From Microgenomates bacterium OLB22 (lineage in GTDB: Bacteria > Patescibacteriota > Microgenomatia > UBA1406 > HO2-37-13b): a stretch of DNA of 64,000 nucleotides. Shown piece by piece: positions 2,649 through 61,185 of this stretch. Where the stretch lies: contig LLEV01000005.1 of NCBI GenBank assembly GCA_001567515.1, positions 54,952 to 118,951 of the forward strand, written 5' to 3'. A program made the position numbers and the translations under genes. Numbering within the stretch: the first letter of the stretch is position 1; every line of letters starts with the position of its first letter. The notes beneath the pieces were generated by a model. It did no database searches. It saw only the letters and a list, made by a program, of their open reading frames with translations, and was not told where the DNA came from.

Positions 2649-4920
2649 TCACTGAGGTGGGATGGCAGTAGGAACTGGTGTTTCCTTTACCTCTTTGAAG
2701 CGCTGTTTTATACCTTCCGTGACTATCAGTAGTGAACGAGGTTGACCATCCTGATTACAGTCCAGACATGACTTAGTCCCAAGAATATCAGTCAGTATGG
2801 TTTTTTCCTGCATCTCTACAGCAGGATTATCAGGCGTCGTCATAGCACCTGTATCTCTGTTGATAGGGACAAACTCTTTGGTCACCACCGCTTGTGTCTC
2901 TTTCCCTTCTAAAACGCCCTTTCTAAAGAACTCAAATCGCGTCTGACAAGTAGAAGGTTGATTTGGGTCAGTTTGCTGACTTGGCAGCAAACACACCTGC
3001 TTCCCAACCACTCCCTCAGGTCTACGAAGCGGCAGGTCAGGCTGATTTGCCAGAAGCGAACGCATAATGCTATTCCATATAGGGGCTGCTCCAGTAACCC
3101 CAGATACCACTCGTGACATTGAAGAGTTATCATTATTTCCCACCCACGTAGCTACTAAAAAAATTTGGGGTATAACCAATAGTCCAGTTATCTCTCAGAT
3201 CATTGGTAGTTCCTGTCTTTACCGACACTGTTTTCTTAGGGACCACCAGCGATGAAGAGCCCCCAAATGCATCTGAGCGGGCCCCATTGTCCTGTAGGAT
3301 ATGTGAGATGATGAAAGCGGTCTCCTTAGAAAGAGCTCTCTTGCCTTGGATCTTGATAGTATCAGGATACTCAAGGGGCACAGTCACATCATCCACAGTA
3401 TTTGGGTCTTTGTACTCGTACAATACTTTACCACTTTTATCCTCAATTTTTCTGATGGCTACCAGAGTCTTAGGAATGCCTTCATTAGCAAAAACCGAAA
3501 AGGCCTGCGCCATTTCTGTCATACGAACCTCACCGCCACCAAGAGTAAGTGATAGTCCGTAACGTGCTGGATCAGTAAACGTAGTAATTGTAAATGCTGA
3601 AGATGAGGCCACGAAATCTTTGACTCCATTTACCGCTAACATCTTTACTGCTGGAATGTTCAGAGAGTTCCCTAGAGAGGAACGTAGCTGTGTCGGGCCG
3701 CGATATTTCCCATCGTAGTTTACTGGACAGTAGGACTTAGGTTGTCCTGATGCTGAAAAACACGTGGGGATATCGTTGAAGATAGTAGCAGCTGTCACAA
3801 GCCCTCTTTCAATCCCCAGAGCATAGTTGAGAGGTTTGATAGAAGAACCTGGCTGACGCAGTGCAGTAGTCACGTTAAAAGTCCCTGACCCTGTCGCAAA
3901 AAAGTCAGCTGAACCCACCATGGCTAGTATCTCCCCCGTAGACGGTCGGGTTACCAAAGCTGCCCCATTGCTAACCTTAAGCCGTCTGAGTGATGTTACT
4001 TCCTTATTTACCGCTGCCTCAGCTGATGCCTGAATAGTTTCATCTAATGTAGTAAATACTTTTAGTCCACCCTTTTCTATAATATCTTTCCCAAATTGCT
4101 TTTCAAGCAGTTCTCGGACATAAAATACGAAGTGAGGCGCTTTGATAGTGTTAGCAGGAGGATGAATCTTCAGCTCTTGTTTCTCTGCAGTAATGCGTTC
4201 TTTCTCAGTAATGTAGCCCAATTCCTCCATGCGTTTTAGTACGGCCTCTTGTCCACGTTTGGCACGCTCAGGGTTGATATGAGGAGAGAAGTAGCTTGGC
4301 CGCTGTGGTAAACGGGCAAGTAAAGCTGCTTCCGCTAGGGTCAGATCTTTAGCATCTTTGTCAAAAAATGTTTTCGCGGCCTCTTGAATTCCGTATGAGA
4401 CACCACCATAGGGCACTTGATTGAGATACAACTCAAGGATCTCATCTTTGGTCATGATCTGCTCAACCCAGAGAGCCAATACGATCTCTTTTATCTTTCG
4501 CTGAATAGTCCTCTCTGGTGTCAGCAACGCTGACTTGATAAGCTGCTGGGTAATTGTCGAACCGCCCTGAGTGCCCTGATGGAGGACAAAGGTATCTTTG
4601 AGTGCTCGTAGCATGCCTCCTACTATAGATATGCCGTTGTGCTTGTAAAAGTCAGCATCTTCTATAGCTATGGTGGCATACTTAACATAGTCTGGGAGAT
4701 CTTTTATATGCACTGGGGTTCTATTTTCCTCATTGAAGATCTCGTACAATAGCTCTCCCTTGCGATCAAGTACTAGTGATGAGATAGGTATTACTTGATA
4801 ATTTTTAAGACCGCGTGGATTCGGGAGACCTCGAAATATGTATATGTATGCGATAGCAATCAACACTACAGCAGAAATACCTAGCAAGAACAATTTCTGT
4901 TGCCTGGGTGTCACAGTCAT
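2649..4920 (-). CDS. class A penicillin-binding protein (PBP1A-type transglycosylase/transpeptidase), reading frame split at an A7 run 3156-3162
   Basis: N-terminal TM anchor; GT51 motifs (EDADFYKHNGIS, GGSTITQQL); transpeptidase SSIKP, SLN, KTGTTND. ORFs 3133..4920 and 2649..3179 join as ...GYTPNFLVATWVGNNDN... if the run is 6 nt, matching the paralog at 12074..14245. Confidence 0.85.
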
Positions 4921-5000: not shown

Positions 5001-6807
5001 TTACTTGGTTGTTGCTGTGTCATCGCCGTGAGCGTATAAACGATAGGTGGTAGCTCCGATCTTTTGGATCTTATCTACGATAATAGTACCAATTTCGCCG
5101 GTATTTGTCACGTGAGGGCCACCGCAAAGCTCTAAGGAGTAAGCCTCGGAGACATCTGTGGCCGTCCCCCCTATCGCATAGACAGTAACCTCATCAGGAT
5201 ATCTTTCGCGAAAGGATGCCCGTGCCCCCTTTTGGATAGCCTCTTCCTTGGACATTGTATGGGCATATATGGGTATTGACTCGCGAATCTTTGTGTTGAC
5301 GATCTGCACTATCCGCTCAGACAAATCAGTCACAGCAGGTTGATCTACATGAAAATCAAAGCGCAGTCTTTCTTGTGTAATATTAGAGCCTTCTTGTCTT
5401 ACTGACTCCCCCATAAGGTCGTGCAGAGCTTGATGTATGAGGTGCGTAGCGGTATGGTACTTAATCACTTGATCTGACGAGTCCGCGAGACCACCCTTAA
5501 ACATACCGGCAGATGCTGACTTTGCTGATTCACTATGTATATGAACTAACCTCTCAAAATCCTGCTCTATCCCATCAGGGATAGATAAGCCATTATGTCG
5601 TGCTTGTTCTAGTGAAATCTCTAGGGGTATACCATGGCTTTGATATAAGTTAAAGAGAAGATGTGCGGTTACCTCCCTCCCATCTAGCAACGTCTTGGTA
5701 CTATCGAGCAGCTTATTAAACTTGTGCAATTCAGCTTGAATAATATCAGTAGCTAGTACTACATCAATGTCTTCGTATACCGATTTATAGAGCTTTGTAA
5801 AACTCATTATGATAGGGGATGCATCAAAAGAGTCGAGTCGGTACTTTCTCACTGAAAGGGCAGCTCTTCGCAACAATCTGCGGAGCAGATAGCCGTGCTC
5901 TTTGTTGGCAGGAGAGATACCATCCTTAATCAAAAATAGTGAGGCACGTAAATGATCAAGAATGATTCGCGTGTCTACACTGTTTATAGAAGGTAGAAGC
6001 GAAGTAATGCTGGTAGCCGCATCCACAAAAAGTTCCGTTTGAAAAATGTCAGGATTATTGAGCTGGGCTGCCATAATACGCTCAAGCCCTCCTCCAAAAT
6101 CGATACTTTTTTGAGAAAGTTCGTCAAGTCCTCCCGCCTCACTCTTTATGTACTGGATGAACACCGAGTTACCTATCTCCATAAAACGTCCACAGTCACA
6201 GTTGGGGTGGCACTTTATTCCATAAGAAGGGTCATGATCTATTGAAGTAAACTCGTAAAATAACTCAGTGTCAGGCCCTCCTATCTCGCCTACCGGCATC
6301 TGGGAAGGGACCCCTGAACGCGACCACCAATTCTTTTCTACCCCATACCAATGGATATGATCATCAGATAAACCCAAAGTCTTCCATACATCATATGATT
6401 CTTGATCCATAGGCACACTCGCATCTCCTTCAAAGACACTAACATGAAGCCTCTCAGGCGCCAATCCAAATACTTCTGTATAGAGCTCCCACATTGCAGG
6501 GATTTGTTCAGCTTTGAAATGTATCCCTAGTGACCAGTTTCCAAGCATCTCAAAAAAAAGTAGTGTGTCTGTTGTCCCCTACTTCATCGATATCACCAGA
6601 CCGAAAGCACGGTTGTATATCGTATAGATTCCTACCGGATGGATGTTGCTGACTGCTAGATAAATATGGTACTAGTTGCTGCATCCCCGACGAAGTAAAT
6701 AGTGTGGTCGCATCATCCCTCGGTATGAGTGATGCTGGGGATATCTCATTATACCCACGCGCCTCCCAAAATGAGTTGAATGCCTGGCGAATCTTGAGAT
6801 AAGTCAT
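5001..6807 (-). CDS. alaS: alanyl-tRNA synthetase (short form, catalytic+tRNA-binding+editing domains), frame split at an 8-nt homopolymer 6552-6559
   Basis: 85-aa ORF ends ...GDNRHTTFF then TGA; 515-aa ORF begins MLGNWSLG; with a 7-nt run the product reads RHTTFFEMLGNWS, the AlaRS consensus. Editing motifs HLIHQALH and CGGPHV present. Confidence 0.9.
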
Positions 6808-6828: not shown

Positions 6829-6867
6829 CAGGTCAAACAAAAAGACTCCAGGACCGAAGTCCTGGAG
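6829..6867 (-). terminator. Rho-independent terminator downstream of the large surface-protein gene
   Basis: 9-bp perfect stem CTCCAGGAC/GTCCTGGAG (6846-6867) with CGAA loop, followed on the minus strand by UCUUUUUGUUUG. Confidence 0.6.
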
Positions 6868-6891: not shown

Positions 6892-9800
6892 TTAGTTGGT
6901 AAGTGATGTCCCCAGCCATGTTCGTGAGGCATCAACATCCATAGCATTAGTCTGACCATCAAGGTTCAGATCATACTGATCTAGTTCATAATTACCTGTC
7001 AGAGTCAGAAAATCAATAGAGTTAACTTCACCATCACCGTTGAGGTCTGCTAGTCCTGACTGTTTGGTGACAGTCACACTATCACCTGCCTTTACTAGAT
7101 AGTTGACCTCGTTATCGAGTATGCTAAAGTCTCCACACGGGTATGCTTGGCCAGCAATACTCAGGCTGCAGGCTGCATTCCCCAGAGTTGATCTCGTGAG
7201 ACCCTCAGGAACATTGACAAACACTTTACTATTTCCTGCCGGATCAAAGCTCTGGAATCCGCCATCAAAACACTGGTCAGACCCAGTCTTACACATGCCT
7301 ACAGACAAGCTTACGGCATCAACATCTGCCCCTATAGTCTCAAAGGAGATTATAGCTCCTCCATTTCGGGCTCTTGTCTTTTGGGCATGAGCAGCACTAG
7401 GGCTCATTCCTAGCAAGAATGACGAATCAGCAGTGTCATCAGTCTCATAATCAAGATCGATAGTGACATCTCTATTTGGACTACTGGCAATCTTACCAAA
7501 GAGCTCCGAATTGCCTTTGAGTGATAGTTTGCCCTTTCTACTATTATTGCTAATACCAATTACACGACATCTGTAATGGTCTACCTCACCTTCCTTCTTT
7601 GAGACTATCTTAGTAAAGCCAAAGTCAAGATCACCATCGTCATCAAGATCGATCGTAGCAGTGTCTAGCTCCTTCCTATGATTACCTGCTTCAAAAGCAC
7701 TTCCGACAAAGTACTCACACATGTAGGTTACAGAAGCTGGGTTTCCCTTATTATCCCTCTTCAAGTCCCTGAAATTGCTTACAGAGACAGTACCATCAAC
7801 TCTAAATGTAGTTACTTCTGAGGTAACAACATGTTTTGGCATGGCACAACAAGCTTGGAGACTATTAGTACATCCAGGCAAGTCAACAACCGTACCGCCA
7901 GAGCTCGTACAGTTCTTATTGTTCTGGCAGCTAAAGCTTCTACTCTCCGTTGATCCTGTACAGCTTGTTGGTAGGGTATCAGATTTTGGCTTTGAAGCGC
8001 AACACACTGTTCTGATCGAGCAGCCACCAACTCCAGATAGGCCTACTCCACCGACTTCCTCACAACTATTTGCGGATGAGCAGCCAAGCTCATAATCAGC
8101 TCCTTTGAGAGTCACTGTACCACGACAAGCTCCTGTAGTAGTGTCCTTCTTCTCGGGGACTGAACAGCATACTGTATTTAAGCGACAGCTGCCCAGTGAT
8201 GGAGTACTTGCCCCATTTGCCGCACAGTCACTCCTTGACTGGCAACTGAGATTAAATTTGACTCCTGCAGCCGTAAAGCTTCCAGAACATGTTCCGACTG
8301 GAGTGCCAGATGGACGCGTACCACCAGTAGCTGGCGGTGTCAATTGCACTGGGTCGGGTTGAGCACCCCCAAGACAGCAGAGATTATCGCCTGCGATACT
8401 GCAGTAACTAGGTCCACTCCTAAATGCGCCGCCTTGAGCTGCACATGCTGAGGCATTATTACAATAACACCCCGGACCACCGGACTGCGGTTGCTCAGTC
8501 CTGTCCTTACAACACAACGTCTCATACCCTACTCCTGTCCTTTCATTTTTCGACATACGAGCCGTCTGAGAAAACCCTGGCTTATTTGAACAGTTGCTTC
8601 CGCTGGTGGTCTCACAGGCCTTACTAGGCTTTGGCCATAACACTATCGCGGCCTCTGCTTGTGCACCACTGGAGACGTTTAGATTGCTAGCTGCATTAGC
8701 GCAGACCACATCTAGCTCGTTTGGCTTACCGGGGTCAGCATTTGGCAAGAGCTCTTTATCGAGAAACTCGACGTTATAGATACCCACCGGCAGCTGATGT
8801 AGTCCAAAGTATCCACAACCGACTCTACGATCAGCAGGTATATGGGTATCTCCTGGATTTCTTTCCATCTTGTTGGCATATGTACGTGAACCGATCAGTC
8901 TTGCACCTATACCACATTCACCCTCATATGAACGGATATCAGCAAGAAACTTGCCACTTGAGTCATTTACTCTCTTATTCAGGTTTGTTTTAAGAAAGTT
9001 CGCATCGCAAAGATTACCTGAAGGTCTCTCACCGGCAATGACTACGTAAGTACGGACATTTATAGAGCCACTACCTGACTGCGCTGAGGCAGTCGGTTCG
9101 GTACCACCCCGGCCTGTCGTCTTGATGAGCCTCCATCCATATTTGATATCAGCGCCACAGATGAGCCCTAGATCTTTTATGGTGAGTCCCCCATTGGTAG
9201 CCGTTGTCATAGTACACCCGCCAAATGCCCCACGACCATAATCGCAGAAGAATGATTGCATGCCCTGCGCAAGCGCATACCCAGCAGGTAGTTGCAGAGT
9301 TACATCAGCCCTCGTGTTATGTAGATTTGAGTTAGGCAAGCCTACCGTAGTAACCCGTGCCGCTCCTACCGAAGGAAAGTCTCCATGGTCTGGACCTATG
9401 GCAGTCCTGTTACTCCACTTTGCACCTGATACATTAGTCAACACGTTACCATTTTCGTCTTGAAGCTCAAGAACAGCTTTAAATGAGCACGCAGCAGGAG
9501 CAGTGGCTCTTGGTGTTGGTGAATTATCAACACGAAAAGGCGATGTCGGCACAGGGGTGTTCTGGGTAGTAGGCCTCCCAGGTGGGAGCGTGATAGTACT
9601 ATCTCCGCCACTACCAATGGTAAGTGGTCTTACTACCCACCCATAGTTGATCTTAGCTCCGCATTTGGGAGTAAAGTTTGCAAATGTCTTACTATTTTGA
9701 TTTTTATTCGTTGGGCAAGAAGTAGCTGAACCAGAGTCAGTACAGAATGTTGATGCGACTTCTAGATCACCAGAAAGATTACCCAGCGTCACAGTAGCAA

Positions 9801-10263
9801 AATCTCCTTCAACATATGGTGCTATGGAGGTAAGCTGACGAGTAACTGTCCCTGTTGTAAGGGTCTCGGGGCCAGCTGGTGAACGAGCATCGGTAGCCGT
9901 CACAGCTCTCCCACCATTTTGGCTACTACTTAGAAGTGTCCCATTTTGGCGATCGAGAAATACGGAGATGGTATAGTCATATGAGCAGTTCTCCGCAGCT
10001 CGACCAAAAAACTGCTGAACATTCTTTGATTGCATGACTCCAGCAGCCGACCCAAGAAGCATAAGTCCAATTGAAAGCAGAGTGAGTGTCAGTGCTATTT
10101 CTCCTCTAGTATATTTGCTTGAATGAGGTATTCTTTGGAGCTCTACATTGGGGCCAGCATGAAAAATACTGTTTACACTTTTTTTGATAATCGCAGATAA
10201 ACCTCGCATAAACATTTTTTTGCATGCTTGTTGAATTAAATAGTAATCTGATAACCTTACCAT
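6892..10263 (-). CDS. large (about 1100 aa) secreted/surface cysteine-rich protein with dockerin-like calcium-binding C-terminal repeats
   Basis: N-terminal signal anchor (LTLTLLSIGLMLLGSAAG); repeated Cys-rich modules ending in VCC/LCC/ACC (CRLNTVCCSV, CSIRTVCCAS, CTNSLQACCAM); internal repeat KINYGWVVRPLTIGSGG / DIKYGWRLIKTTGRGG; C-terminus DLNGDGEVNSIDF...DLNLDGQTNAMDVD resembles tandem dockerin-type Ca-binding loops. Confidence 0.6.
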   Translation of the reverse strand: MVRLSDYYLIQQACKKMFMRGLSAIIKKSVNSIFHAGPNVELQRIPHSSKYTRGEIALTLTLLSIGLMLLGSAAGVMQSKNVQQFFGRAAENCSYDYTISVFLDRQNGTLLSSSQNGGRAVTATDARSPAGPETLTTGTVTRQLTSIAPYVEGDFATVTLGNLSGDLEVASTFCTDSGSATSCPTNKNQNSKTFANFTPKCGAKINYGWVVRPLTIGSGGDSTITLPPGRPTTQNTPVPTSPFRVDNSPTPRATAPAACSFKAVLELQDENGNVLTNVSGAKWSNRTAIGPDHGDFPSVGAARVTTVGLPNSNLHNTRADVTLQLPAGYALAQGMQSFFCDYGRGAFGGCTMTTATNGGLTIKDLGLICGADIKYGWRLIKTTGRGGTEPTASAQSGSGSINVRTYVVIAGERPSGNLCDANFLKTNLNKRVNDSSGKFLADIRSYEGECGIGARLIGSRTYANKMERNPGDTHIPADRRVGCGYFGLHQLPVGIYNVEFLDKELLPNADPGKPNELDVVCANAASNLNVSSGAQAEAAIVLWPKPSKACETTSGSNCSNKPGFSQTARMSKNERTGVGYETLCCKDRTEQPQSGGPGCYCNNASACAAQGGAFRSGPSYCSIAGDNLCCLGGAQPDPVQLTPPATGGTRPSGTPVGTCSGSFTAAGVKFNLSCQSRSDCAANGASTPSLGSCRLNTVCCSVPEKKDTTTGACRGTVTLKGADYELGCSSANSCEEVGGVGLSGVGGCSIRTVCCASKPKSDTLPTSCTGSTESRSFSCQNNKNCTSSGGTVVDLPGCTNSLQACCAMPKHVVTSEVTTFRVDGTVSVSNFRDLKRDNKGNPASVTYMCEYFVGSAFEAGNHRKELDTATIDLDDDGDLDFGFTKIVSKKEGEVDHYRCRVIGISNNSRKGKLSLKGNSELFGKIASSPNRDVTIDLDYETDDTADSSFLLGMSPSAAHAQKTRARNGGAIISFETIGADVDAVSLSVGMCKTGSDQCFDGGFQSFDPAGNSKVFVNVPEGLTRSTLGNAACSLSIAGQAYPCGDFSILDNEVNYLVKAGDSVTVTKQSGLADLNGDGEVNSIDFLTLTGNYELDQYDLNLDGQTNAMDVDASRTWLGTSLTN

Positions 10264-14245: not shown

Positions 14246-14476
14246 AACTTTCCCCCCCGGCCAAGACTATGTAACGTGCCATCTGTTGCGTCCAGAGGAC
14301 ATAACTGGTCAAGAGCACAAAAAGTCGGTTGAGCGCCCAGAGAGTAATAGACCCTATAGTGGTAAAAAAAATTGAAGAGGCCAATTAGTAGTGAGATGAT
14401 GAGCTGCTTCATTGAGCATGAATTCTATAAGATACTCTTGCTTTTTGCAAGTAGAGACTACCTTAGGGGAGGGAGA

Positions 14477-15325
14477 CTAATGCACATCAGGTAGCTTTAC
14501 CAGTTCAGTCGCTATCACTAGCCTGCGCAGATAAGTACCTGGCGGAGTGCATGTTATAAGATACAAATAAGGACGATCATACTGCTGTTCTAAGACCGAG
14601 ACCTGTGATGGCTCTACTTCAAATTTATCAACCACTTGGTACTCACAGGTGATGTCTCCAATAGTTAGGATGACACGATCGCCACTTGTAAGAGTCGCAA
14701 GATAGGTAAAGATACTGGTATATAACTTATCAGTAGTAAAACGTGCTAAAGCAGGATGAGTTGAGTGTCCGAAGATAGTTACCTTACCATACTCACACGG
14801 TAAGACTCGTGGTTGGAAATGAATAAGTCCCTTTAACAGATCTTCGCCATTTACCTGCACCTTCGCATCATAAATGTCCAACTTGGGGATAGAGATCGTA
14901 TACTCACTAACCGAGAAAGCTCTTTTCGCAGGCGTATCGTCTGCATACACAGTGGGGAACCAGGAAGCTGCCTTGGTATAGTCAGCAAGATTTGTTGTGT
15001 ATACTGTACTTTTTTTGTTAGTAAAACCTTCTACTACCGATGAAGATCCATTGTCTGTTGGGCTTATGATACGAGTATTTAGGATAAAGCGAGCAAATAG
15101 TTCATATTGGATGATAGGAAACAGTGACCAAAACAAGAATAGTGAACCACAGAGTATTGCCACATAAGAAAAATAGGCAACTGGCTTTTTATAACGATGG
15201 TCCTTTTTTTTTGTAGCAGTAAAGAGCCATACATCATTGGATATCAATACTGACAGAAATATTTTGATAAAAAAGTGGCAGAATTGAATTGAGGAAATAT
15301 AGGTTATTATCAAAACGAATGTCAA
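14477..15325 (-). CDS. sortase-family transpeptidase (start uncertain)
   Basis: Catalytic TLxTC motif LYLITCTPPGT and conserved His region IFGHSTH; N-terminal TM; the 5' end overlaps the upstream ORF and contains an in-frame A9 run. Confidence 0.7.
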   Translation of the reverse strand: MTFVLIITYISSIQFCHFFIKIFLSVLISNDVWLFTATKKKDHRYKKPVAYFSYVAILCGSLFLFWSLFPIIQYELFARFILNTRIISPTDNGSSSVVEGFTNKKSTVYTTNLADYTKAASWFPTVYADDTPAKRAFSVSEYTISIPKLDIYDAKVQVNGEDLLKGLIHFQPRVLPCEYGKVTIFGHSTHPALARFTTDKLYTSIFTYLATLTSGDRVILTIGDITCEYQVVDKFEVEPSQVSVLEQQYDRPYLYLITCTPPGTYLRRLVIATELVKLPDVH

Positions 15326-18915: not shown

Positions 18916-20332
18916 ATGAAAAGAGGACACTTTTACTTTTTTGCTAAACACACAATCCTTTCGCTATGTGTAGCTTTCTTGCTTTGTGCACTTACTGCAG
19001 GTATTGTTTTTGGGGCACTCTATTATGCTGCCAAAGTCACATACAAAGATCGCGTCCTCCCCTATACCTATGTAAATAGTTTGAATGTATCTGGGAAGAC
19101 ACCTGGTCAAGTTGAAGAGCTACTTACCAAAGCAACTTAATGAATTGCAGAAAAAAGAGTACCGCTTCGTATACAACGATGTAGAAGAAAAGATAATAGC
19201 CGGAGAAGATCTTTTCTTTTCTTATAACTTCGATGGGATACGACCTATCCTCACGAGAGAGAATAAATCCCTCCTGAGCAATCTATACGCAATTTTTTAT
19301 CCACGTAGTGCTTCATGAGCCAACAATAATTACCATTAAGCCCACGTATCAACCTTCGACCATAGCAGAGTATTTAGATGATCTAGATAAGAGGTATGGG
19401 AAAGAAGCAAAGGATGCTAAGTTTCAACTAGAAGGGAGAAAGGTTGTTGCTTTTCAGATTGAAGAGCAGGGGAATAAAGTAGATAGAGAAAAAACAATTG
19501 CTGATTTTGAGCGCAGCCTAGGGTCTGAGGCTAGCACTCCAACGATATCAGTGTCGAGCATATTTCAACTACCGCTAGTTCAAATCAAGGATATCAACAC
19601 CTATGGCATAGTCGAGAAAGTGGCAGAAGGTGTCTCAGATTACAGTGGATCTTCAAATGAAAGAGTACACAACCTGTTACTCGCAGCAAAGCAGTTACAT
19701 GGTGTACTGATTCCAAAGGGGGAGATATTTTCCTATAACAAGGCAGTAGGCGATATCTCTGTAAAAGACCGGATATAAACAAGCATATATTATTCAAGAC
19801 GGCAAAACTGTCTTGGGTGACGGAGGTGGGATCTGTCAGACATCTACTACCATGTTCAGAGCTGCATTAAATGCAGGCCTGCCGATCATAGAGCGACATG
19901 CTCATTCATATAGAGTACGATATTATGAAAATGACCAAAAACCTGGACTAGACGCTACTGTATTTGCTCCCCGTGTTGATTTTCGTTTTAAAAATGATAC
20001 GCCAGCAGCTTTACTTATACAGATGCATGTTGATAAGGAGAAAAGGAAGCTAACTTTTTTCTCTTTATGGTACCCGTGACGGACGAGTCACTACTATTAG
20101 TCCTATCAGGGTATCTGGGTATCGTCCAGCTCCTGAGCCCCAGTATATAGATGATCCAACACTTCCAAGAGGCACACAAAAACAAGTTGATTGGGCAGCC
20201 ACTGGGGCCACATCAAGGTTTGACTACCTCGTAAAGAGAGACGGAGAGATCTTGCAAGAGAAGACATTTGTATCCAACTACAGACCATGGCAAGCTAAAT
20301 TCCTCGTGGGAACAAGAGACTAGACTATTTAT
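18916..20332 (+). CDS. VanW/YoaR-family protein, fragmented into at least 5 frames
   Basis: GDGGGICQTSTTMFRAALNAGL and FKNDT are VanW hallmarks; pieces 18916-19140, 19085-19318, 19308-19778, 19813-20079, 20064-20332 rejoin by single-base changes at T6 19293-19298, A4 19763-19766, T6 20055-20060 and one site in 19085-19140. Confidence 0.7.
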
Positions 20333-21785: not shown

Positions 21786-22712
21786 GCTTCCTTAAATCCA
21801 ACACCTAACTTGTGTAATTCAGCCTCAATGAGGTCTAGTGATTTACGCCCTACACCCTTCAGATCAACAAGTGTTTCTTTGCCTTGCTCAATAAGATCTC
21901 CTACTGTTTCAATGCCTTCTCGAAGGAGGGCGTTAATTACTCTGGTAGGAAGATCTAGTTCATCAATAATGGTTTCATAGACTTTTTTCGTCTATTTTCA
22001 CACTCCCGGTGATACCACCAGCTGCATCATCCTCTGAAAGGAGAGCACCATTAAACATATGAGAATAGAACTGTGCAAGGATAGCCGCTGACTGTTCCAA
22101 GGCGTCTTTTGGAGATACCGAACCATTAGTCCAGATCTCAAGAATTAATTTATCAAAATTAGAAACACGTCCTACACGAGCTGGTTCAACTCTAAATGTC
22201 ACCTTAGTAACAGGGCTAAAGATAGAATCAACAGCAATCATGCCATGCTCTTTCTTCTCTTTATCTTCTGATGAAGAGAAACCCAACCCTTTTTCGACTA
22301 TGAAGGTCAAATCAAGACTACCCTTAGCATCTGTGATCTCAGCGATATGATGATCTAAATTTACGACCTCAAGACCTGTTGCCTTGATATCTTTACCAGT
22401 CACACTCTTTGCTCCCTTAAGCGAGACTGATACCTCAAGTGGTTCTTTTGAATTGAGGACAAATTGAAGTTCCTTTAGATTCATGATCACCTCTAGCGCA
22501 GTCTCTTTTATTCCTTTCAGAGGACTGAAGACGTGAGGTACCCCGTTCATCTTAACATAGGTCACAGCAGCACCTTCTATAGACGAAAGAAGCACGCGGC
22601 GAAGAGCATTACCGAGACTGTGAGCATATCCATAGGGAAGTGGGCTCAATTCGAAAACACCATAGGTAGATGTATCGGTAACTTGTTTTGTAGTAAAGCT
22701 TGGTTTTAGCAT
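21782..22712 (-). CDS. rpoA: DNA-directed RNA polymerase alpha subunit, frame split between NTD and CTD at a T6 run 21983-21988
   Basis: 245-aa NTD ORF ends IDEKSL*; the next frame encodes the alpha-CTD ETIIDELDLPTRVINALLREGIETVGDLIEQGKETLVDLKGVGRKSLDLIEAEL; one base fewer gives continuous ...KIDEKVYETIIDEL... Confidence 0.9.
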
Positions 22713-25314: not shown

Positions 25315-25860
25315 CTAGGCAGAAGTCGCCCCCAATGCTTTGAGAATGGAGGCATGAATAGACTCAATCGAAGAAGTGCCATCTATTTGAATAAGTTTGT
25401 TGGCAACTCTGAAGACCTCTATAACAGGAGTAGTGACTTCTTTGAAGAGCTTAATCCTTTCATAGACGGCCGATAAACTTGTGTCATCTCGATCTTCAAC
25501 TCTACCAGCAAGACGCCATAATGCTTCTTTTTCATCTAATTCAATGTGGATAAGGTAGTCCAAACTGTCTAAAAATTCACGTGCCTGTCCTACCGTCCGT
25601 GGAAATCCATCTATAACAAATCCATTAGCGTAGTCTGGACCGGTTAGGTGCTGCTTCACAAACCTGATGGTGAATTCATCTGAAAGCAGTTGGCCAGCAT
25701 CGATTGCCTCTTTAACTTGTTTGGCTTCAGCGGTATCGCCTTCTGCAAAAGTTCTCAGGAGCTGACCTATTGAAAGATGAGGAATGCCCAACACGTTGGA
25801 AAGTAGTTTCGCCTGTGTTGTTTTGCCAGATCCTTGTATACCGAGTAATGACAGCCTCAT
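25315..25860 (-). CDS. adk: adenylate kinase (short form)
   Basis: P-loop LLGIQGSGKTTQAKLL, GFVIDGFPRTVGQA. Confidence 0.85.
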   Translation of the reverse strand: MRLSLLGIQGSGKTTQAKLLSNVLGIPHLSIGQLLRTFAEGDTAEAKQVKEAIDAGQLLSDEFTIRFVKQHLTGPDYANGFVIDGFPRTVGQAREFLDSLDYLIHIELDEKEALWRLAGRVEDRDDTSLSAVYERIKLFKEVTTPVIEVFRVANKLIQIDGTSSIESIHASILKALGATSA

Positions 25861-25864
25861 GTAA

Positions 25865-26044
25865 TTAGTGTAGCTTTTTCATCTCCTTATGGGGAGTATG
25901 TTTTTTACAAACAGAACAATATTTTGTCAGGTCAAGCTTATCAATCGTGTTTATCTTGTTTCTCTCGGTCACGTAGTTCTGCGATTTACATACACTACAT
26001 TGCAAACCAAAGAGTACTCGCGCACCTTTTTTCTTTTTTGCCAT
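25865..26044 (-). CDS. rpmG: 50S ribosomal protein L33 (zinc-ribbon type)
   Basis: Own translation of minus strand: MAKKKKGARVLFGLQCSVCKSQNYVTERNKINTIDKLDLTKYCSVCKKHTPHKEMKKLH, CxxC..CxxC L33 pattern; missed by the ORF track (59 aa). Confidence 0.75.
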   Translation of the reverse strand: MAKKKKGARVLFGLQCSVCKSQNYVTERNKINTIDKLDLTKYCSVCKKHTPHKEMKKLH

Positions 26045-27804: not shown

Positions 27805-28270
27805 CTAGCTTCTATTTTTTTCCTTTAACTTCTGTAGTGCCTTTACCACAGCATAGGTGTTTGTTGTCTTATTACGCGTACCTATGATCTTGCCTGAAGC
27901 GTTAGATACTCCAGCCACTGTCAGCACAGATCTCAGAACACTTCCCACTTTCAATCCCGCGCCCTCTGGAGCTGGCTTGAGGATGAGTCGTGCTGATTTG
28001 TATTTTATCTTAATTTCATGTGAAAGTGTGGTCCCGTGACGCTCTATTGTAAATAATTTTTTTACGTGCCTGAGCTATAGATTTTTGTATAGCTTTGGGG
28101 ACTTCTTTTGCTCGTCCAAGTCCAATTCCTAGCTTTCCATTATGATCACCTACAACTACTAGGGCTGTAAAACTGATGGCGCTACCACCGGTAGTCTTTT
28201 TGGAAACTCTTCGGATGAGTAATACTTTCTCATCTAAATCTTTTTTTTCTGCTTCAATAAATTCTGCCAT
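27805..28270 (-). CDS. rpsE: 30S ribosomal protein S5, frameshifted at a T7 run 28057-28063
   Basis: ORF 28016..28354 has only the N-terminal half; with a 6-nt run the frame continues ...ILKPAPEGAGLKVGSVLRSVLTVAGVSNASGKIIGTRNKTTNTYAVVKALQKLK, the canonical S5 C-terminus, ending at TAG 27805-27807. Confidence 0.9.
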
Positions 28271-30093: not shown

Positions 30094-30630
30094 TCAGTCA
30101 ATAAATGGCATCTTGAACGCTTCAAGAAGAGCTTTAGCAGCGCTATCGCTTTTTGCAGAAGTCACAATAGTGATCTCCAATCCTCTAACTTTGTCTATTT
30201 TATCATATTCTATCTCAGGAAAGAGGGTCTGATCGCTTAAACCGATATTTAGGTTTCCCATCCCGTCAAAAGCTTTTGAAGAAAGGCCCTTAAAATCTCT
30301 AATACGTGGGAGCACAATCGAGATGAGCTTTTCCAAAAAGTCGTATGCACGTTGTCCTCGAAGCGTCACTTTTACGCCGATAGGTAGTCCTTTTCTAATC
30401 TTAAAAGCGGATACAGATTTACGAGCCTTGCATATGAGTGGCTGTTGGCCTGTGATAATCTTGATATCTTCAACGACTGCTTGGACTGCATTTTTGTTCA
30501 TTGATGCCTCACCTACTCCAACATTTACTACGATCTTTTCGAGCTTTGGAATAAGACTCACATTCGAGAAAGCGAGATCTTTCTGCAATTGTTTACTGAT
30601 TGTGGTTTGATAGTGATTTAAGAGTGACAT
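30094..30630 (-). CDS. rplE: 50S ribosomal protein L5
   Basis: L5 fold; start taken at MSLLNHYQ, which leaves a 5-nt gap to rplX. Confidence 0.9.
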
Positions 30631-32838: not shown

Positions 32839-33312
32839 TTATTTGGTCTTGCTCTTGCTAATTTTTGATACTGCTTTTGCTATTTTTATTGGTTTTTCTC
32901 CGGTAACTGATTTTTCTACTTTCTGTTCAACCCTTGGTACTACTGTGATCTCAGATCCTTTAGTTTTGGCTTCTCCTTTGGAAGGAGCTACAGTCAACAT
33001 AATAGTAATATGTGATGTCTTACGAACATATCTTTTAGCTGATCCCTTACTACCAGCTCTGAAACGCTTAAATCCGGGCCCTTCATCTACACGTACTTCC
33101 TTAAAAGCTAGGGTCTGAACCTCAAGTTGCCTCTGCTTGGCACTATCCAGGGCCGCTAGGATACTCTTTCGAAAAAATTTTGCAGCACGATCTTGCATCA
33201 AAGCCAAACGCTTGGTTGCCACAACAGGATGCATACGCTTGATAGCTGCACGTAAAATACGTAGTTTCCTAGGAGCAATATGTATATACCGAGTTGATGT
33301 CTTGATTTCCAT
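32839..33312 (-). CDS. rplV: 50S ribosomal protein L22 with Lys-rich C-terminal extension
   Basis: ARYIHIAPRKLRIL core; follows rplB directly with no S19 between. Confidence 0.9.
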   Translation of the reverse strand: MEIKTSTRYIHIAPRKLRILRAAIKRMHPVVATKRLALMQDRAAKFFRKSILAALDSAKQRQLEVQTLAFKEVRVDEGPGFKRFRAGSKGSAKRYVRKTSHITIMLTVAPSKGEAKTKGSEITVVPRVEQKVEKSVTGEKPIKIAKAVSKISKSKTK

Positions 33313-37600: not shown

Positions 37601-38545
37601 TTATTCTACTTTTTTTGCATAGCTGGAAGATATCCAGCCAAAGAGCCCTTTCTTATATTCAATCTTATACCACCCAGTTTGCTGACCAGCAATAACGTAC
37701 TTCTCCCCCGGATTTACCTTAGCAGCCTCAGATGCTGTTGTAGAAGGCTCAACTCTCACTCTCAACCAACCTGTGGGGGTATCCAATATCTCAATGGAAC
37801 TTCCACCCGTAGATGCTGAAGCTGTGGTTTGTGGCGTAGGAGTTGTTGACCTTGTGGGAGTCGGGCTTATTGACTTAGCTGATGAGGTAGCAACTTGAAG
37901 TCCGGCAGACCCAGATGCAGCAGATAGCTCGTCGATCTTCTTCACTGAAGAGTCTACTGCTAGCTTGAAATAAGCTATTACCTCATAACCCTTTTCTACA
38001 CGTACTTTCTTCTGTTTTCTGAAAAATCCGGATGATACTATCGTGATCTCATGGATGCCTTGCTCAGCTTCAACTGATTGTAATGGCGATATACCTACCT
38101 CTTCACCATCTATAAGTACTAAAGCCCCCTTAGGATCAGTATCAACACTAATGAGTCCTTTATCACGAGCGTTATCCGATTTTCTTACAGTCAGTATGAT
38201 GCCTGAAGATGAGTTAGCATCTAGACCAAGCTCTTGTTCAACCTCTGTGCGAGCATTGGAATACACATCAATGGTTCCCTCCCAAGGGATAGCGTTGGTA
38301 CTTGTATCTACAGGCTCAAGTCTCAAGGTGTATGATCCCACTGGATAGGTCTTTTCTAGTGACGTTGTCCCAAGTTCCTTACCATTTATTATGACCTTAG
38401 CTAAGGGGGAAGAAAGTACTTTCAAAACGCCATTCTGAGATCGACTCTTGAGAAAGAAAAAAGATAGTACAATGGCTGTTAAGAAACCTGCAACCAGGAT
38501 AAGTAGGAATACTATCTTTGATTTCATGGGCATATCATAATCCAA
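37601..38545 (-). CDS. membrane-anchored PEGA-domain / C-terminal SH3b-domain protein
   Basis: N-terminal TM; two PEGA-like units (LAKVIINGKELGTTS..., ALVLIDGEEVGISPL...); Thr/Pro/Ser linker; C-terminal GWLRVR...GWYKIEYKKGLFGWISSSY typical of bacterial SH3. Confidence 0.55.
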   Translation of the reverse strand: MDYDMPMKSKIVFLLILVAGFLTAIVLSFFFLKSRSQNGVLKVLSSPLAKVIINGKELGTTSLEKTYPVGSYTLRLEPVDTSTNAIPWEGTIDVYSNARTEVEQELGLDANSSSGIILTVRKSDNARDKGLISVDTDPKGALVLIDGEEVGISPLQSVEAEQGIHEITIVSSGFFRKQKKVRVEKGYEVIAYFKLAVDSSVKKIDELSAASGSAGLQVATSSAKSISPTPTRSTTPTPQTTASASTGGSSIEILDTPTGWLRVRVEPSTTASEAAKVNPGEKYVIAGQQTGWYKIEYKKGLFGWISSSYAKKVE

Positions 38546-39877: not shown

Positions 39878-40942
39878 TCATGATGATTTTTGAGCGGTCT
39901 GTGATATAGTCTGGAGTATCCATATAAATAGTCCTAGCAATATAAATACAGAGAAGAATGCAAGTAGCTTTTCTCCAGTGGTCTCTAGAAAGAGGAGACT
40001 TGAGCCAAACAAAAGAGAAACGAAGAGATAGAAAAGAGATATTCGTCTTCTTCCCCATCCCGCAGCTAGGAGGCGATGATGAAAATGCCCCGCGTCTCCT
40101 TGAAGAGGGGACTTTCCGGAGAAAACCCTTCGAGTCATAACATAACATGCATCTGTAATAGGGATAGCAAGTACTACACCAAGCGTCCCTACTTTAGTAT
40201 ATGAGAGTAAGGACAAGAACCCCAGCAGATAACCCGCCAAAGTACCCCCAGCATAACCGGGCATTATCTTCTGAGGATAAAAACTCCAAAAGAAAAAGCC
40301 TGCGAATATACCTGAACACAGATACGCAAAACGAGCAACATGCACAACTGAGACTTCATAAGCACCCACTCGATGGGCAAAGTACCCCATAAAAGAAAAA
40401 TGCAACAGCGACAAATCCTGATAACTGTCCATCCAGACCTGAACTCCAACTCACGAAGTTCATGAGTGAAAGTATCCATATAATGGCGACTATATCGGCA
40501 AGTACCAATATGTTCTTCCCCCAGATATCTAACGTAAAGAGTGGTGAATCGAGACGAATTACCCCTCCAAAGGGATTAGATATGTATGGGATACCGAGTC
40601 CCGACATCACAACCGTTGATACTATAACTGCTGTAATAATAAGTCGAAGTAGGGGTTTTAGATCATATCGGTCATCCAACAATCCCAGTCCTACTATCCC
40701 ACCCGCACCTAGGAGGATTGAAAACAATTGCTTATCAACAGGAAAACGCAACAATACATAACCCATGAGGATACCCATATAAATTGCAAGACCCCCAGCA
40801 CGAGATACTATCCCCCGATGGGTAGTTGCTGGATGAAAAACGCTTATCTGGATCGTCTACCAAACCGACTCGAGGGGAAAGAGCAATTGCTAGTGGAGTG
40901 GTGATGTTAATAAGAAAAAAATGCTGTGATGAACTCTATCAT
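39878..40942 (-). CDS. polyprenyl-phosphate HexNAc-1-phosphate transferase (WecA/TagO/MraY superfamily, WecA-like), fragmented by about 3 frameshifts
   Basis: N-terminus ...SPRVGLVDDPDKR then FHPATTHRGIVSRAGGLAI (WecA DxPxxRKxH...PxxGG); LGLLDD, NFVSWSSGLDG (NxxNxxDGxDG), WSFYPQKIMPGYAGGTLAG. Pieces rejoin at A7 40915-40921, A5 40836-40840 and a site in 40385-40400. Confidence 0.7.
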
Positions 40943-44490: not shown

Positions 44491-45499
44491 CTACGAGGTA
44501 GTTTTACTTACTAAGTCGTATTCCAGATTTTCTTTTATGATCCGTATACCATTTAGGTTCTGCATCTTATGATAGTAGGGGAGCATAAATAGACTTTTAA
44601 GAATACTATTTCTACGAAGTCTCTGGGGGAAATCGCGTGACATGGATTCTCCCGAGTATCCAGCCATTAGCCATTCAAGTGGCAGCTGTTTTCGATACAT
44701 GAAATGCCAATGAGTAAAGTCAGCAACTGGGTCCCCACCACTTGCTCCCTCGAAATCAATAAGCCCCGTTAGTTCATCTTTCTCATCCACAAAAAATGTG
44801 GTCAGGGCCGAGGTCGTTATGAAGAAGTCGAGGGGTATCTGTGTACTCATGCGTACGTTCCCTAGCAACAGTCAGGGATTCTTCAAGTAATCTCACATCA
44901 ATTTCATACTCCTTAGCTAGATCGTATAACTGCTCATTTTCTATGATAGGGTTTATAGCATCCCACTCTGTTTCATACTCTGCCCTGCCTTCGCCATCGA
45001 TTCTCCCAAAACCATGAGTCTGAATGCCATGCATAATAGCCAGGATTTCCCCCGTCTTTCTTAAGATAGATTGAAGCCTCCTGTCTGAGATTCCTTCAGA
45101 TTGCTGAATGTCTCGAATTGATCTGCCTGCTAGTTTTGTTTGAACACTAGCCCAGGATGGACTATCTGCTCCTTCGAGCGCAGCAATATAAATGACATTT
45201 GGAACAGGTATTCCAGCCTTTTCACACTGCGTCATAGCCCATTGCTCCCTTTCAAATCGCCTTCTGTCTTTGCGACTAATACGCAAGATGACTTTATGCG
45301 CACTCGTTAGTTCAACTTCATATACTTCGTTGCTTTCTCCTTTTACTATGCGCTCCTTTCTGACTAAATCAGAACCTGTTGCCAGCTTTATCAGAGGAAT
45401 CAAAATTTCATCTGGAGTATTGAAGCCCAGATGAAGACCATCTAAATAAGCCTTATGTTGTGCAGCATGATCATTGTGTGAAGAATCTGAGGAAGACAT
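44491..45499 (-). CDS. aminoglycoside/choline-kinase-type phosphotransferase (APH family), frameshifted at an A6 run 44791-44796
   Basis: 238-aa ORF ends LLHNDLGPDHIFCG*; the next frame continues FFVDEKDELTGLIDFEGASGGDP (Brenner HxDLxxxN and DFE motifs); one base fewer gives ...GPDHIFVDEKDELTGLIDFEG... Confidence 0.7.
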
Positions 45500-45501
45500 G
45501 T

Positions 45502-46964
45502 CTATTTCACTTTTGCTGTGACTTTGTATTCGATCTTCTTACCTAGAAGCAACCTGACATGTGTATCGAGTGCGGGCAGGGATGAGAAAAGGAAGGAGAT
45601 AATGGGCAAAAAATACCACTGTATAAATAGTAACGGGACCTTGGAGATATCAGTCTTGATGTTGACATAGTTGCGCAGTCGAAAATCGAAGTAGAGGATG
45701 AGGAAGAGAAGTAGGGTAGTCATCGTCAAAAGAGCTGATGAAAGTCGGGGTAATAGGTAACCGAGCACTGTCCTCTCAAATGTTGGGTGAACTAGGGTCG
45801 GGATCCAACCGCTGATAGTAAGTAGGAAAAAGGATGTCGGCCAAAGGATATGTGTCTCAGAAATATAGGACAATTTCTTTATCCGTTCGATGAGCGGAAC
45901 ATGCGTAGCGATGAGCGACTGCCGAAGAGCATAGGAGATGTCCGAGCTCCCCACGCCCACCTTTTTTCTTGCTGATAGCGAATCTGGAGGGCTTTCATGA
46001 GTTTTGGAGCATAAACACCATCACGTACAATTGGGAGATAGATAGGGATTGTCTGAACTTCTGCCCCAAGAGTATAGAATGCTTGTAGATGGATATGCCA
46101 GTCCTCTGGGATGATGTCGGTATCCCAATATCCGATCCGGTGCAACATATCAATCGAACAAGAATACGTGGAAATCTGTATGAACTTGCGCTCCTGTGGG
46201 AGAAGTGATAGTCGCAAAACAGAAGAGATGATAGTCTGTAGCCTGACGGGAAGGGCCAAAGCCCAAAAATGGTTGTACAGCAGCACAGGCGCCGCAAAAA
46301 AATGGAAATCGCGCTTAGCATCCTTGAGATATTTATAGGTGAGGCACGAGTAGTATGAGTGATGGAGCTGACTATCGGTATCCATCACAGTGACCACCAC
46401 TTTCTTAGGATCCAGGCCCTTCTTCTGTACATACTCATAGAGTTCTTTTGCTGCGAAGGCTGCGTTACTTGCCTTCCCGACTACTTCTCCAGGTAACAAG
46501 GGATGATATGTATCGATGATATCTTTAAAAACTCCTCGGTATTTTTTCTTTATAAAGTCCGCACGAGCTTTTGCTGTCTCCTCAAAACGCTTTTCTAGAG
46601 CAAGCAGAACTATAGTCTGCTTTACAGGAAATGTCTGGTTTTGAAGACACTCTACTGTGCGGTCCACTATCTCTACAGGCTCGATAGCATTTGTGATTAG
46701 TGCCACATGGATGACATCGGAGTAATCCATCTCACTCTCCTCTAGAGTACCTTGCCAATCAAGGTTGACTGAACGTTCAAATATTGCAAAAGAGATCCAG
46801 GCATAATAGATCGTCCGGATTGATTTGTACGAAAAGTAGACTATATATGCCAAGACCAAGTATGCAACTATGGCTGGATGAAAAGGGGGGAAAGCCATAT
46901 AGGTAGGGTGATTAGTGTTATGGAAGCCACTGGGACAAAGCGTTCTGAAAGCCAGATAAACCAC
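45502..46964 (-). CDS. processive family-2 glycosyltransferase (cellulose/chitin/hyaluronan-synthase-like), C-terminal TM region out of frame
   Basis: QQEKRWAWG (QxxRW) motif and DTD (VMDTDSQ); ORFs 45879..46964 and 45502..45960 overlap and must be joined by a frameshift within 45879-45960. Confidence 0.65.
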
Positions 46965-60509: not shown

Positions 60510-61185
60510 ATGATGGCAGAGACCAAACAATTGTCCAAAACTCAAAAGATGCTCAATGTTTGGGCTGTAGTACTCATTCTATGGAGTCTCTATCGCACTG
60601 CTAACATCGCCATGCCGCTCTGGTTTGATGAATTTATTGCCAAGCCAGCAGTATTCATCCTGCCAGTGTTATGGTTCATCCATAGATATGAAGGTGCCAC
60701 TATCTGGGATGGCCTATGGCTATCAAGAAAGAATATCCGATCATCTCTCTATTACGCACTCGCAATAGGTGCTTTTTTTCGCTGTCATGGCGGTCATCGG
60801 AAACATCACGAAGTATGGCCACTTCTCTACGGATGCCACGCTATTTTCACTCTCATCGTCCACCTTGGCGATGACCATTGCCATCACTGTTGCTACAGCA
60901 ATCTCCGAGGAGATTCTATCTCGCGGCTTTGTCATAAAACGCCTCTATGAAGATTCAAAGTCGGTGTATGGGAGTGCATTCCTCGGTAGCGTACTCTTTC
61001 TCATACTCCATGTCCCTATACTTTTCGGAGACTATAAGCTATCCGGGCCATCCATCATTTTACTGCTATCTACAAATTTTATACTTAGTTTCATCAACTC
61101 CATCGTGTTTATAGATAGAAAGAGCCTCATAGCCCCCATCCTCATACATGCATTCTACAACATAGCGATCCTTCTCTATACCTAA
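60510..61185 (+). CDS. CPBP-family (CAAX/Abi) intramembrane metalloprotease, frameshifted at a T7 run 60773-60779
   Basis: Second ORF carries EEILSRGF (EExxxR), FLILH and HAFYN motifs; one base fewer joins ...YYALAIGAFFAVMAVIGN... Confidence 0.7.

Follow-up and report, generated by a model that had tools for sequence, protein, structure and literature searches.

The alaS gene of Microgenomates bacterium OLB22 lies on the minus strand of the 64-kb stretch of DNA analysed here over its full length (the window), and is present in the assembly as two open reading frames (ORFs) that meet at a homopolymer, a plus-strand A8 at 6552-6559 that reads as T8 on the sense strand. It stands between a gene for a large secreted protein and a gene for PBP1A, an order common to OLB22 and to the loci of its two nearest relatives, L161 and L162. 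The locus comprises the following features.

5001..6807, minus strand: alaS, short-form alanine--tRNA ligase, 601 aa after removal of one T, with matches in NF002436, Pfam and the PDB
6807..6550, minus strand: ORF-N, the N-terminal alaS fragment, 85 codons, ending ...DNRHTTFF followed by a TGA (6552..6550) that is very probably artefactual
6552..6559, minus strand: T8 homopolymer, site of the frame break, with exactly one T more than in the two nearest relatives and a probable true length of T7
6548..5001, minus strand: ORF-C, the C-terminal alaS fragment, 515 codons, starting ATG CTT GGA AAC TGG (MLGNW)
6846..6867, minus strand: terminator-like hairpin with a T-run, which follows the 1123-aa gene upstream and delimits the alaS unit at its 5' end

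Read in the sense direction, the sequence across the break is ...GAC AAC AGA CAC ACT ACT TTT TTT TGA GAT GCT TGG AAA CTG G..., with a single base between the stop codon of ORF-N and the ATG of ORF-C, which encodes the conserved Met of the FFEMLGN motif. The elements named in a preliminary description of this DNA, namely an 85-aa ORF ending in HTTFF and TGA, a 515-aa ORF beginning MLGNWS and an 8-nt run between them, are all present in the sequence. As written, the assembly does not hold HTTFFEMLGNW in one frame. The motif is recovered only after removal of one T from the run, as that description had proposed: the sequence then reads ACT TTT TTT GAG ATG CTT (TFFEML) and gives a single 601-aa ORF with HTTFFEMLGNWS. 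Insertion of two bases also restores the frame, but yields HTTFFFEMLGNW, which is present in no relative, and was rejected as a repair. The layout of TGA followed by ATG is not an independent coincidence, because any extra T in ACT TTT TTT GAG ATG sets a T before GA to form TGA and leaves the conserved Met as the next ATG.

The joined product was aligned to AlaRS profiles, a check already put forward in the preliminary description. The repaired 601-aa protein matched the NCBIfam family NF002436 without interruption, its residues 2-589 aligning with positions 2-587 of the 595-position profile (E = 5.6e-150), with a score of 500.7 bits that falls slightly short of the curated equivalog cut-off of 529, NF002436 still being the best-scoring family. 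A one-stretch alignment at this E-value lies far beyond what chance would give. Pfam placed PF01411 (tRNA-synt_2c, class IIc catalytic and tRNA-recognition regions) at residues 5-451 (E = 4.6e-81) and PF07973 (tRNA_SAD) at residues 540-591, identifying the editing domain, and the editing zinc motifs HxxxH and CxxxH are readable in the translation as HTATH and CGGPH. Catalytic (N-terminal) fragments of AlaRS in the PDB matched at E ~1e-51, in an alignment that passes unbroken through rHhTFFEMLGNfS, and the profile alignments likewise show no gap across the junction. The proposal that the two ORFs are consecutive segments of one alaS was thus borne out, the joined product matching AlaRS profiles in one stretch and the relatives carrying the gene as a single ORF.

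The C-Ala domain is absent from the repaired protein, as it is throughout the NF002436 group and usually among Patescibacteria/CPR. The repaired product covers the profile of short-form bacterial AlaRS (NF002436 / PRK01584, ~595 aa, without C-Ala) from end to end, and at 601 aa it lies within the range of the short forms of CPR relatives (585-634 aa), with catalytic, tRNA-recognition and editing parts all present. Apart from the organism's own 515-aa ORF, each of the best 119 protein matches is a single protein 585-634 aa long, and most belong to Microgenomates or other Patescibacteria. The OLB22 gene differs from this family in occupying two frames as assembled, and its repaired product in scoring just under the cut-off.

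Both nearest relatives carry alaS as a single ORF with a shorter run. The protein of L161 (P0002; 71% aa identity, 601 aa) is encoded at the site by ACG ACT TTT TTT GAG ATG CTC, a T7, and that of L162 (P0003; 68% aa identity, 603 aa) by ACA ACC TTT TTT GAA ATG CTC, a T6; in a three-way DNA alignment, both have a one-base gap opposite the OLB22 T-run. An in-frame TFFEM was found in 155 of the 162 loci fetched, some of which had been picked up through an intact FFEMLGNW pattern, and the run was T7 in 43 of them, T6 in 52, shorter in the rest and T8 in none (0/155). Since the invariant Thr-Phe-Phe is commonly coded ACT TTT TTT, T7 is a natural run length at this position.

A search with the N-terminal 192 aa gave 120 best matches, every one of which reads through the junction without a change of frame. 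The N-terminal fragment is 79% and 74% identical to P0002 and P0003, respectively, against 69% and 67% for the C-terminal part; by this sequence comparison, it is free of decay and at least as conserved as the remaining protein. Among the matches listed for the full-length protein, for the 192-aa N-terminus and for scans of genome and metagenome contigs, none other than the organism's own protein exceeded 71% identity, and none represents an independent assembly of the same species. An exact look-up of the 515-aa product in the contig index returned no match, and the 85-aa ORF is absent from the protein collection.

ORF-C is 100% identical to KXK09036.1, deposited as 'MAG: Alanine--tRNA ligase [Microgenomates bacterium OLB22]' from a contig of 208,458 bp, so the public record carries the same break. 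The OLB genomes stem from a study of the Olburgen partial-nitritation/anammox reactor and were sequenced on the IonTorrent PGM only, using a 400-bp kit (PMC4821891), which places KXK09036.1 in a genome read exclusively on a flow-based platform. The authors of these genomes themselves report persistent frameshifts in the assemblies (PMC4821891). An error study that the OLB authors cite attributes 96-97% of PGM errors to miscalled homopolymers and puts calling accuracy at ~68% for 6-mers and lower still for longer runs (PMC3623719); Bragg et al. found long homopolymers to be mostly under-called in raw PGM reads (PMC3623719).

We scanned the window for further breaks of this kind by testing every homopolymer of at least five bases for a one-base insertion or deletion that fuses two long open frames, and the fused products were scanned against Pfam. 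The same type of break recurs in several unrelated genes.

3157..3163, minus strand: PBP1A, adjoining alaS; sense T7, where deletion of one base joins 618 and 168 codons and Transpeptidase PF00905 (319-597) crosses the junction
21983..21988, minus strand: rpoA; sense A6, with RNA_pol_L and RNA_pol_A_bac before the junction and RNA_pol_A_CTD (242-300) after it, in another frame
28057..28063, minus strand: rpsE (ribosomal protein S5); sense A7, with the Ribosomal_S5 N-domain (12-76) crossing the junction at ~residue 69
40396..40400, minus strand: glycosyltransferase family 4 gene (GT4; MraY/WecA-like); T5, with PF00953 (45-217) crossing the junction at residue 152
44791..44796, minus strand: APH-family kinase gene; T6, with PF01636 (50-277) crossing the junction at ~residue 234
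19293-19298 (T6), 19763-19766 (A4) and 20055-20060 (T6), plus strand: VanW-like gene with three one-base breaks, its VanW profile split 1-35 / 37-129 over pieces in different frames

The breaks in PBP1A, rpoA, rpsE, the GT4 gene and the APH-kinase gene are each mended by deletion of one base at a run of 5-7 bases, with a Pfam domain that crosses or flanks the junction, and in L162, PBP1A is encoded by one uninterrupted ORF of 791 aa that matches residue for residue over GYTPNFLVATWVGNNDN. Altogether, at least five genes besides alaS are broken at homopolymers of 4-7 bases; with alaS, this amounts to at least nine breaks in 64 kb, or about one per 7-9 kb, and three essential genes are among those affected. 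Ten of the 11 homopolymer breaks in the window need a base deleted, that is, they are over-calls of the assembly. Recurrence in alaS, rpoA, rpsE and other genes, including PBP1A and the GT4, APH and VanW-like genes, points to residual flow-sequencing error and is not the pattern of a viable genome.

The VanW-like gene (19086-20330, plus strand) also has a peptidoglycan-binding domain, and its three frame changes fall within ~760 bases, a density higher than elsewhere that points to low coverage of the region or to a real pseudogene. Further candidate breaks were seen at 45962-45967 (minus strand; a membrane protein of 337 and 152 codons that needs an insertion and has no Pfam match), at 60773-60779 (plus strand; a CPBP/Rce1-like protease of 88 and 134 codons, with a CPBP domain confined to one side of the junction), at 14252 (upstream piece of only 55 codons), at 15269 (two parts that resemble different proteins, the second sortase-like) and at 37610 (an SH3 domain that stops at the junction). 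Several sites were rejected as natural neighbours in different frames, namely adk/map at 25329, rplV/rpsC at 32862, rplX/rplE/rpsN at 30150 and 30639, and the small gene beside adk at 25875.

We consider it very likely that the split of alaS is a sequencing artefact, the gene itself being a normal single-copy alaS that gained an extra T through an Ion Torrent homopolymer miscall. This reading is strongly supported by the Ion Torrent-only assembly, the many similar breaks nearby and the T7 and T6 runs of the closest relatives, and the break itself lies inside a homopolymer at which a one-base change restores a full-length conserved product. Judged from the sequence, the true sense strand of the organism would read ACT TTT TTT GAG ATG (T7). 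PGM reads would have miscalled the length of the run, leading the assembly to report T8, and the site would have escaped the frameshift correction of the OLB authors. The extra T would then make a TGA from T and GA(G) and leave the conserved Met as an apparent start, producing the 85-aa and 515-aa ORFs.

The alaS break resembles the flow-sequencing indel artefacts (Ion Torrent PGM, 454) by which genes in draft genomes become fragmented in its platform, its 8-base run, its one-base repair, its recurrence and the authors' own admission of frameshifts. It departs from them in direction: long runs are mostly under-called in published statistics on raw reads, whereas the breaks in the OLB22 window are almost all over-calls. 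This excess may stem from later chemistry or base-calling, from the way the consensus was made or from the correction script that the authors applied.

Were the T8 real, a complete AlaRS could still be made by recoding, either through +1 ribosomal frameshifting at U UUU UGA G or through RNA-polymerase slippage on T8 that leaves some mRNAs with 7 U, and we regard this as very unlikely. In the frameshift route, the P-site tRNA-Phe would re-pair one base downstream while UGA is slowly decoded, as in prfB. A recoded product would carry the junction peptide HTTFFEMLGNWSLGIHFK. UUU UUU UGA G does permit perfect +1 re-pairing of tRNA-Phe with a stop codon in the A site, and UUU UGA G is analogous to the prfB shift site, CUU UGA C; the two sites share a slippery P-site codon with an in-frame stop directly behind it, and the remainder of the protein is read in the +1 frame. 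The stimulator of prfB, a Shine-Dalgarno-like sequence, stands at a spacing of 3 nt, whereas none adjoins the shift codon of alaS, where the upstream sequence is ACACACUAC and the sole AGGGGA lies ~18 nt away. A regulatory logic tying UGA decoding to AlaRS is also lacking. The frameshift is conserved in none of 155 related loci, including the relatives at 71% and 68% identity, although some of these loci were found via intact FFEMLGNW.

Slippage at poly(A/T) tracts is known to rescue frameshifted genes in Buchnera and Blochmannia (PMC5009743), and it also operates on dnaX in Thermus. A/T runs are thus established slippage sites in bacteria, and alaS shares with these cases an A/T homopolymer within an essential gene and a one-base change in the transcript that restores the frame. 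Bacterial slippage has been described on runs of 9 A or T (PMC5009743), and about nine or more bases would be expected of such a site, whereas the alaS run is 8 and the site is not conserved in relatives. With a G+C content of 43%, the OLB22 genome is also not that of an extremely AT-rich endosymbiont. The other breaks in the window fall at runs of only 4-7 bases without a common recoding context, and a single technical cause covers them all. That a CPR bacterium makes its only AlaRS by recoding and tolerates many homopolymer frameshifts in essential genes (rpoA, rpsE, alaS) by expressing them at low fidelity, a mechanism put forward for some insect endosymbionts, strikes us as highly improbable. 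A real T8 would amount to a new recoding event in an essential aminoacyl-tRNA synthetase, and nothing here favours it.

A real and recent frameshift mutation, which would have turned alaS into a pseudogene either in the population assembled or in one subpopulation dominating the consensus, is likewise very improbable. Homopolymers are mutational hot spots for replication slippage, which fits such an origin. The pseudogene reading is confronted with the essential nature of alaS, for which no second copy was found within the 64-kb window, and with two fragments that are otherwise intact over 600 codons, retaining all conserved motifs and showing no extra divergence in the N-terminal part. It would also need rpoA and rpsE to be inactivated, a combination that is not viable.

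The least credible reading, to which we give next to no weight, is a genuine two-piece AlaRS, in which translation stops and restarts at UGA-G-AUG, yielding separate 85-aa and 515-aa polypeptides that together form an active enzyme. Stop and ATG one base apart would allow translational coupling, although this layout arises automatically when one T is added to the ancestral sequence. There is precedent for a split alaS in Nanoarchaeum equitans, where the gene is divided into two separately encoded halves and AlaRS is likewise apparently encoded by two ORFs. The halves in that archaeon lie far apart and are split between structural modules, whereas the OLB22 pieces abut one frame apart and the cut between them interrupts the invariant FFEMLGN strand of the class II catalytic core midway, with loss of the conserved Glu. 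A naturally split AlaRS would be expected to be divided between modules, with a start for each piece and conservation in relatives, a combination that the OLB22 gene does not show; the best matches are single ORFs, with no split at the break site. Overall, +1 frameshifting, slippage, a pseudogene and a two-piece AlaRS each lack their own defining features here.

With the homopolymer over-call as the preferred explanation, the locus is best treated as a single, complete alaS of the ordinary kind. In the public OLB22 record, AlaRS is annotated only in a truncated form of 515 aa, and there are many homopolymer frameshifts besides, including those in rpoA, rpsE and PBP1A. Such frameshifts can distort completeness estimates, pseudogene counts, gene-size statistics and scans for recoding or split genes in CPR genomes.

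Fragmented alaS calls were also seen in two other Patescibacteria assemblies. In one (L163 3001-4893, on an 829-kb contig), alaS is called in pieces of 237, 69 and 294 aa, and in the other (L164 3001-4019, on a 434-kb contig) as two adjoining pieces of 191 and 148 aa. These breaks fall at positions other than that in OLB22, both contigs look error-prone, and the fragments there are probably due to indel errors too. Fragmented alaS calls in CPR MAGs should accordingly be checked before they are read as split genes.

Several observations concern the surroundings of alaS. The 1123-aa ORF upstream (6892-10263, minus strand) has a signal-anchor-like N-terminus, repeated Cys-rich modules and a dockerin-like DxNxDG C-terminus, and large ORFs occupy the matching position in L161 (1-2917; 1175 aa) and in L162 (at least 565 aa, running to the start of the locus). 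Between this gene and alaS, the segment 6808-6845 (minus strand) holds an extended -10-like element, TGCTAAAAT, that ends 6 bases before the alaS ATG. This element is not among the sites listed by the consensus promoter scan, and no Shine-Dalgarno sequence lies between it and the ATG, an arrangement in which alaS may be transcribed as a leaderless mRNA. Downstream, the repaired PBP1A (2649-4920, minus strand) is 86% identical to that of L162 (3568-5943), whereas the adjoining AlaRS is only 67% identical, an unusual ranking of evolutionary rates for this pair of genes. ARAGORN found no tRNA or tmRNA genes anywhere in the 64 kb. Long ORFs cover about 88% of the window, mostly on the minus strand, with a ribosomal-protein cluster at ~21-35 kb.
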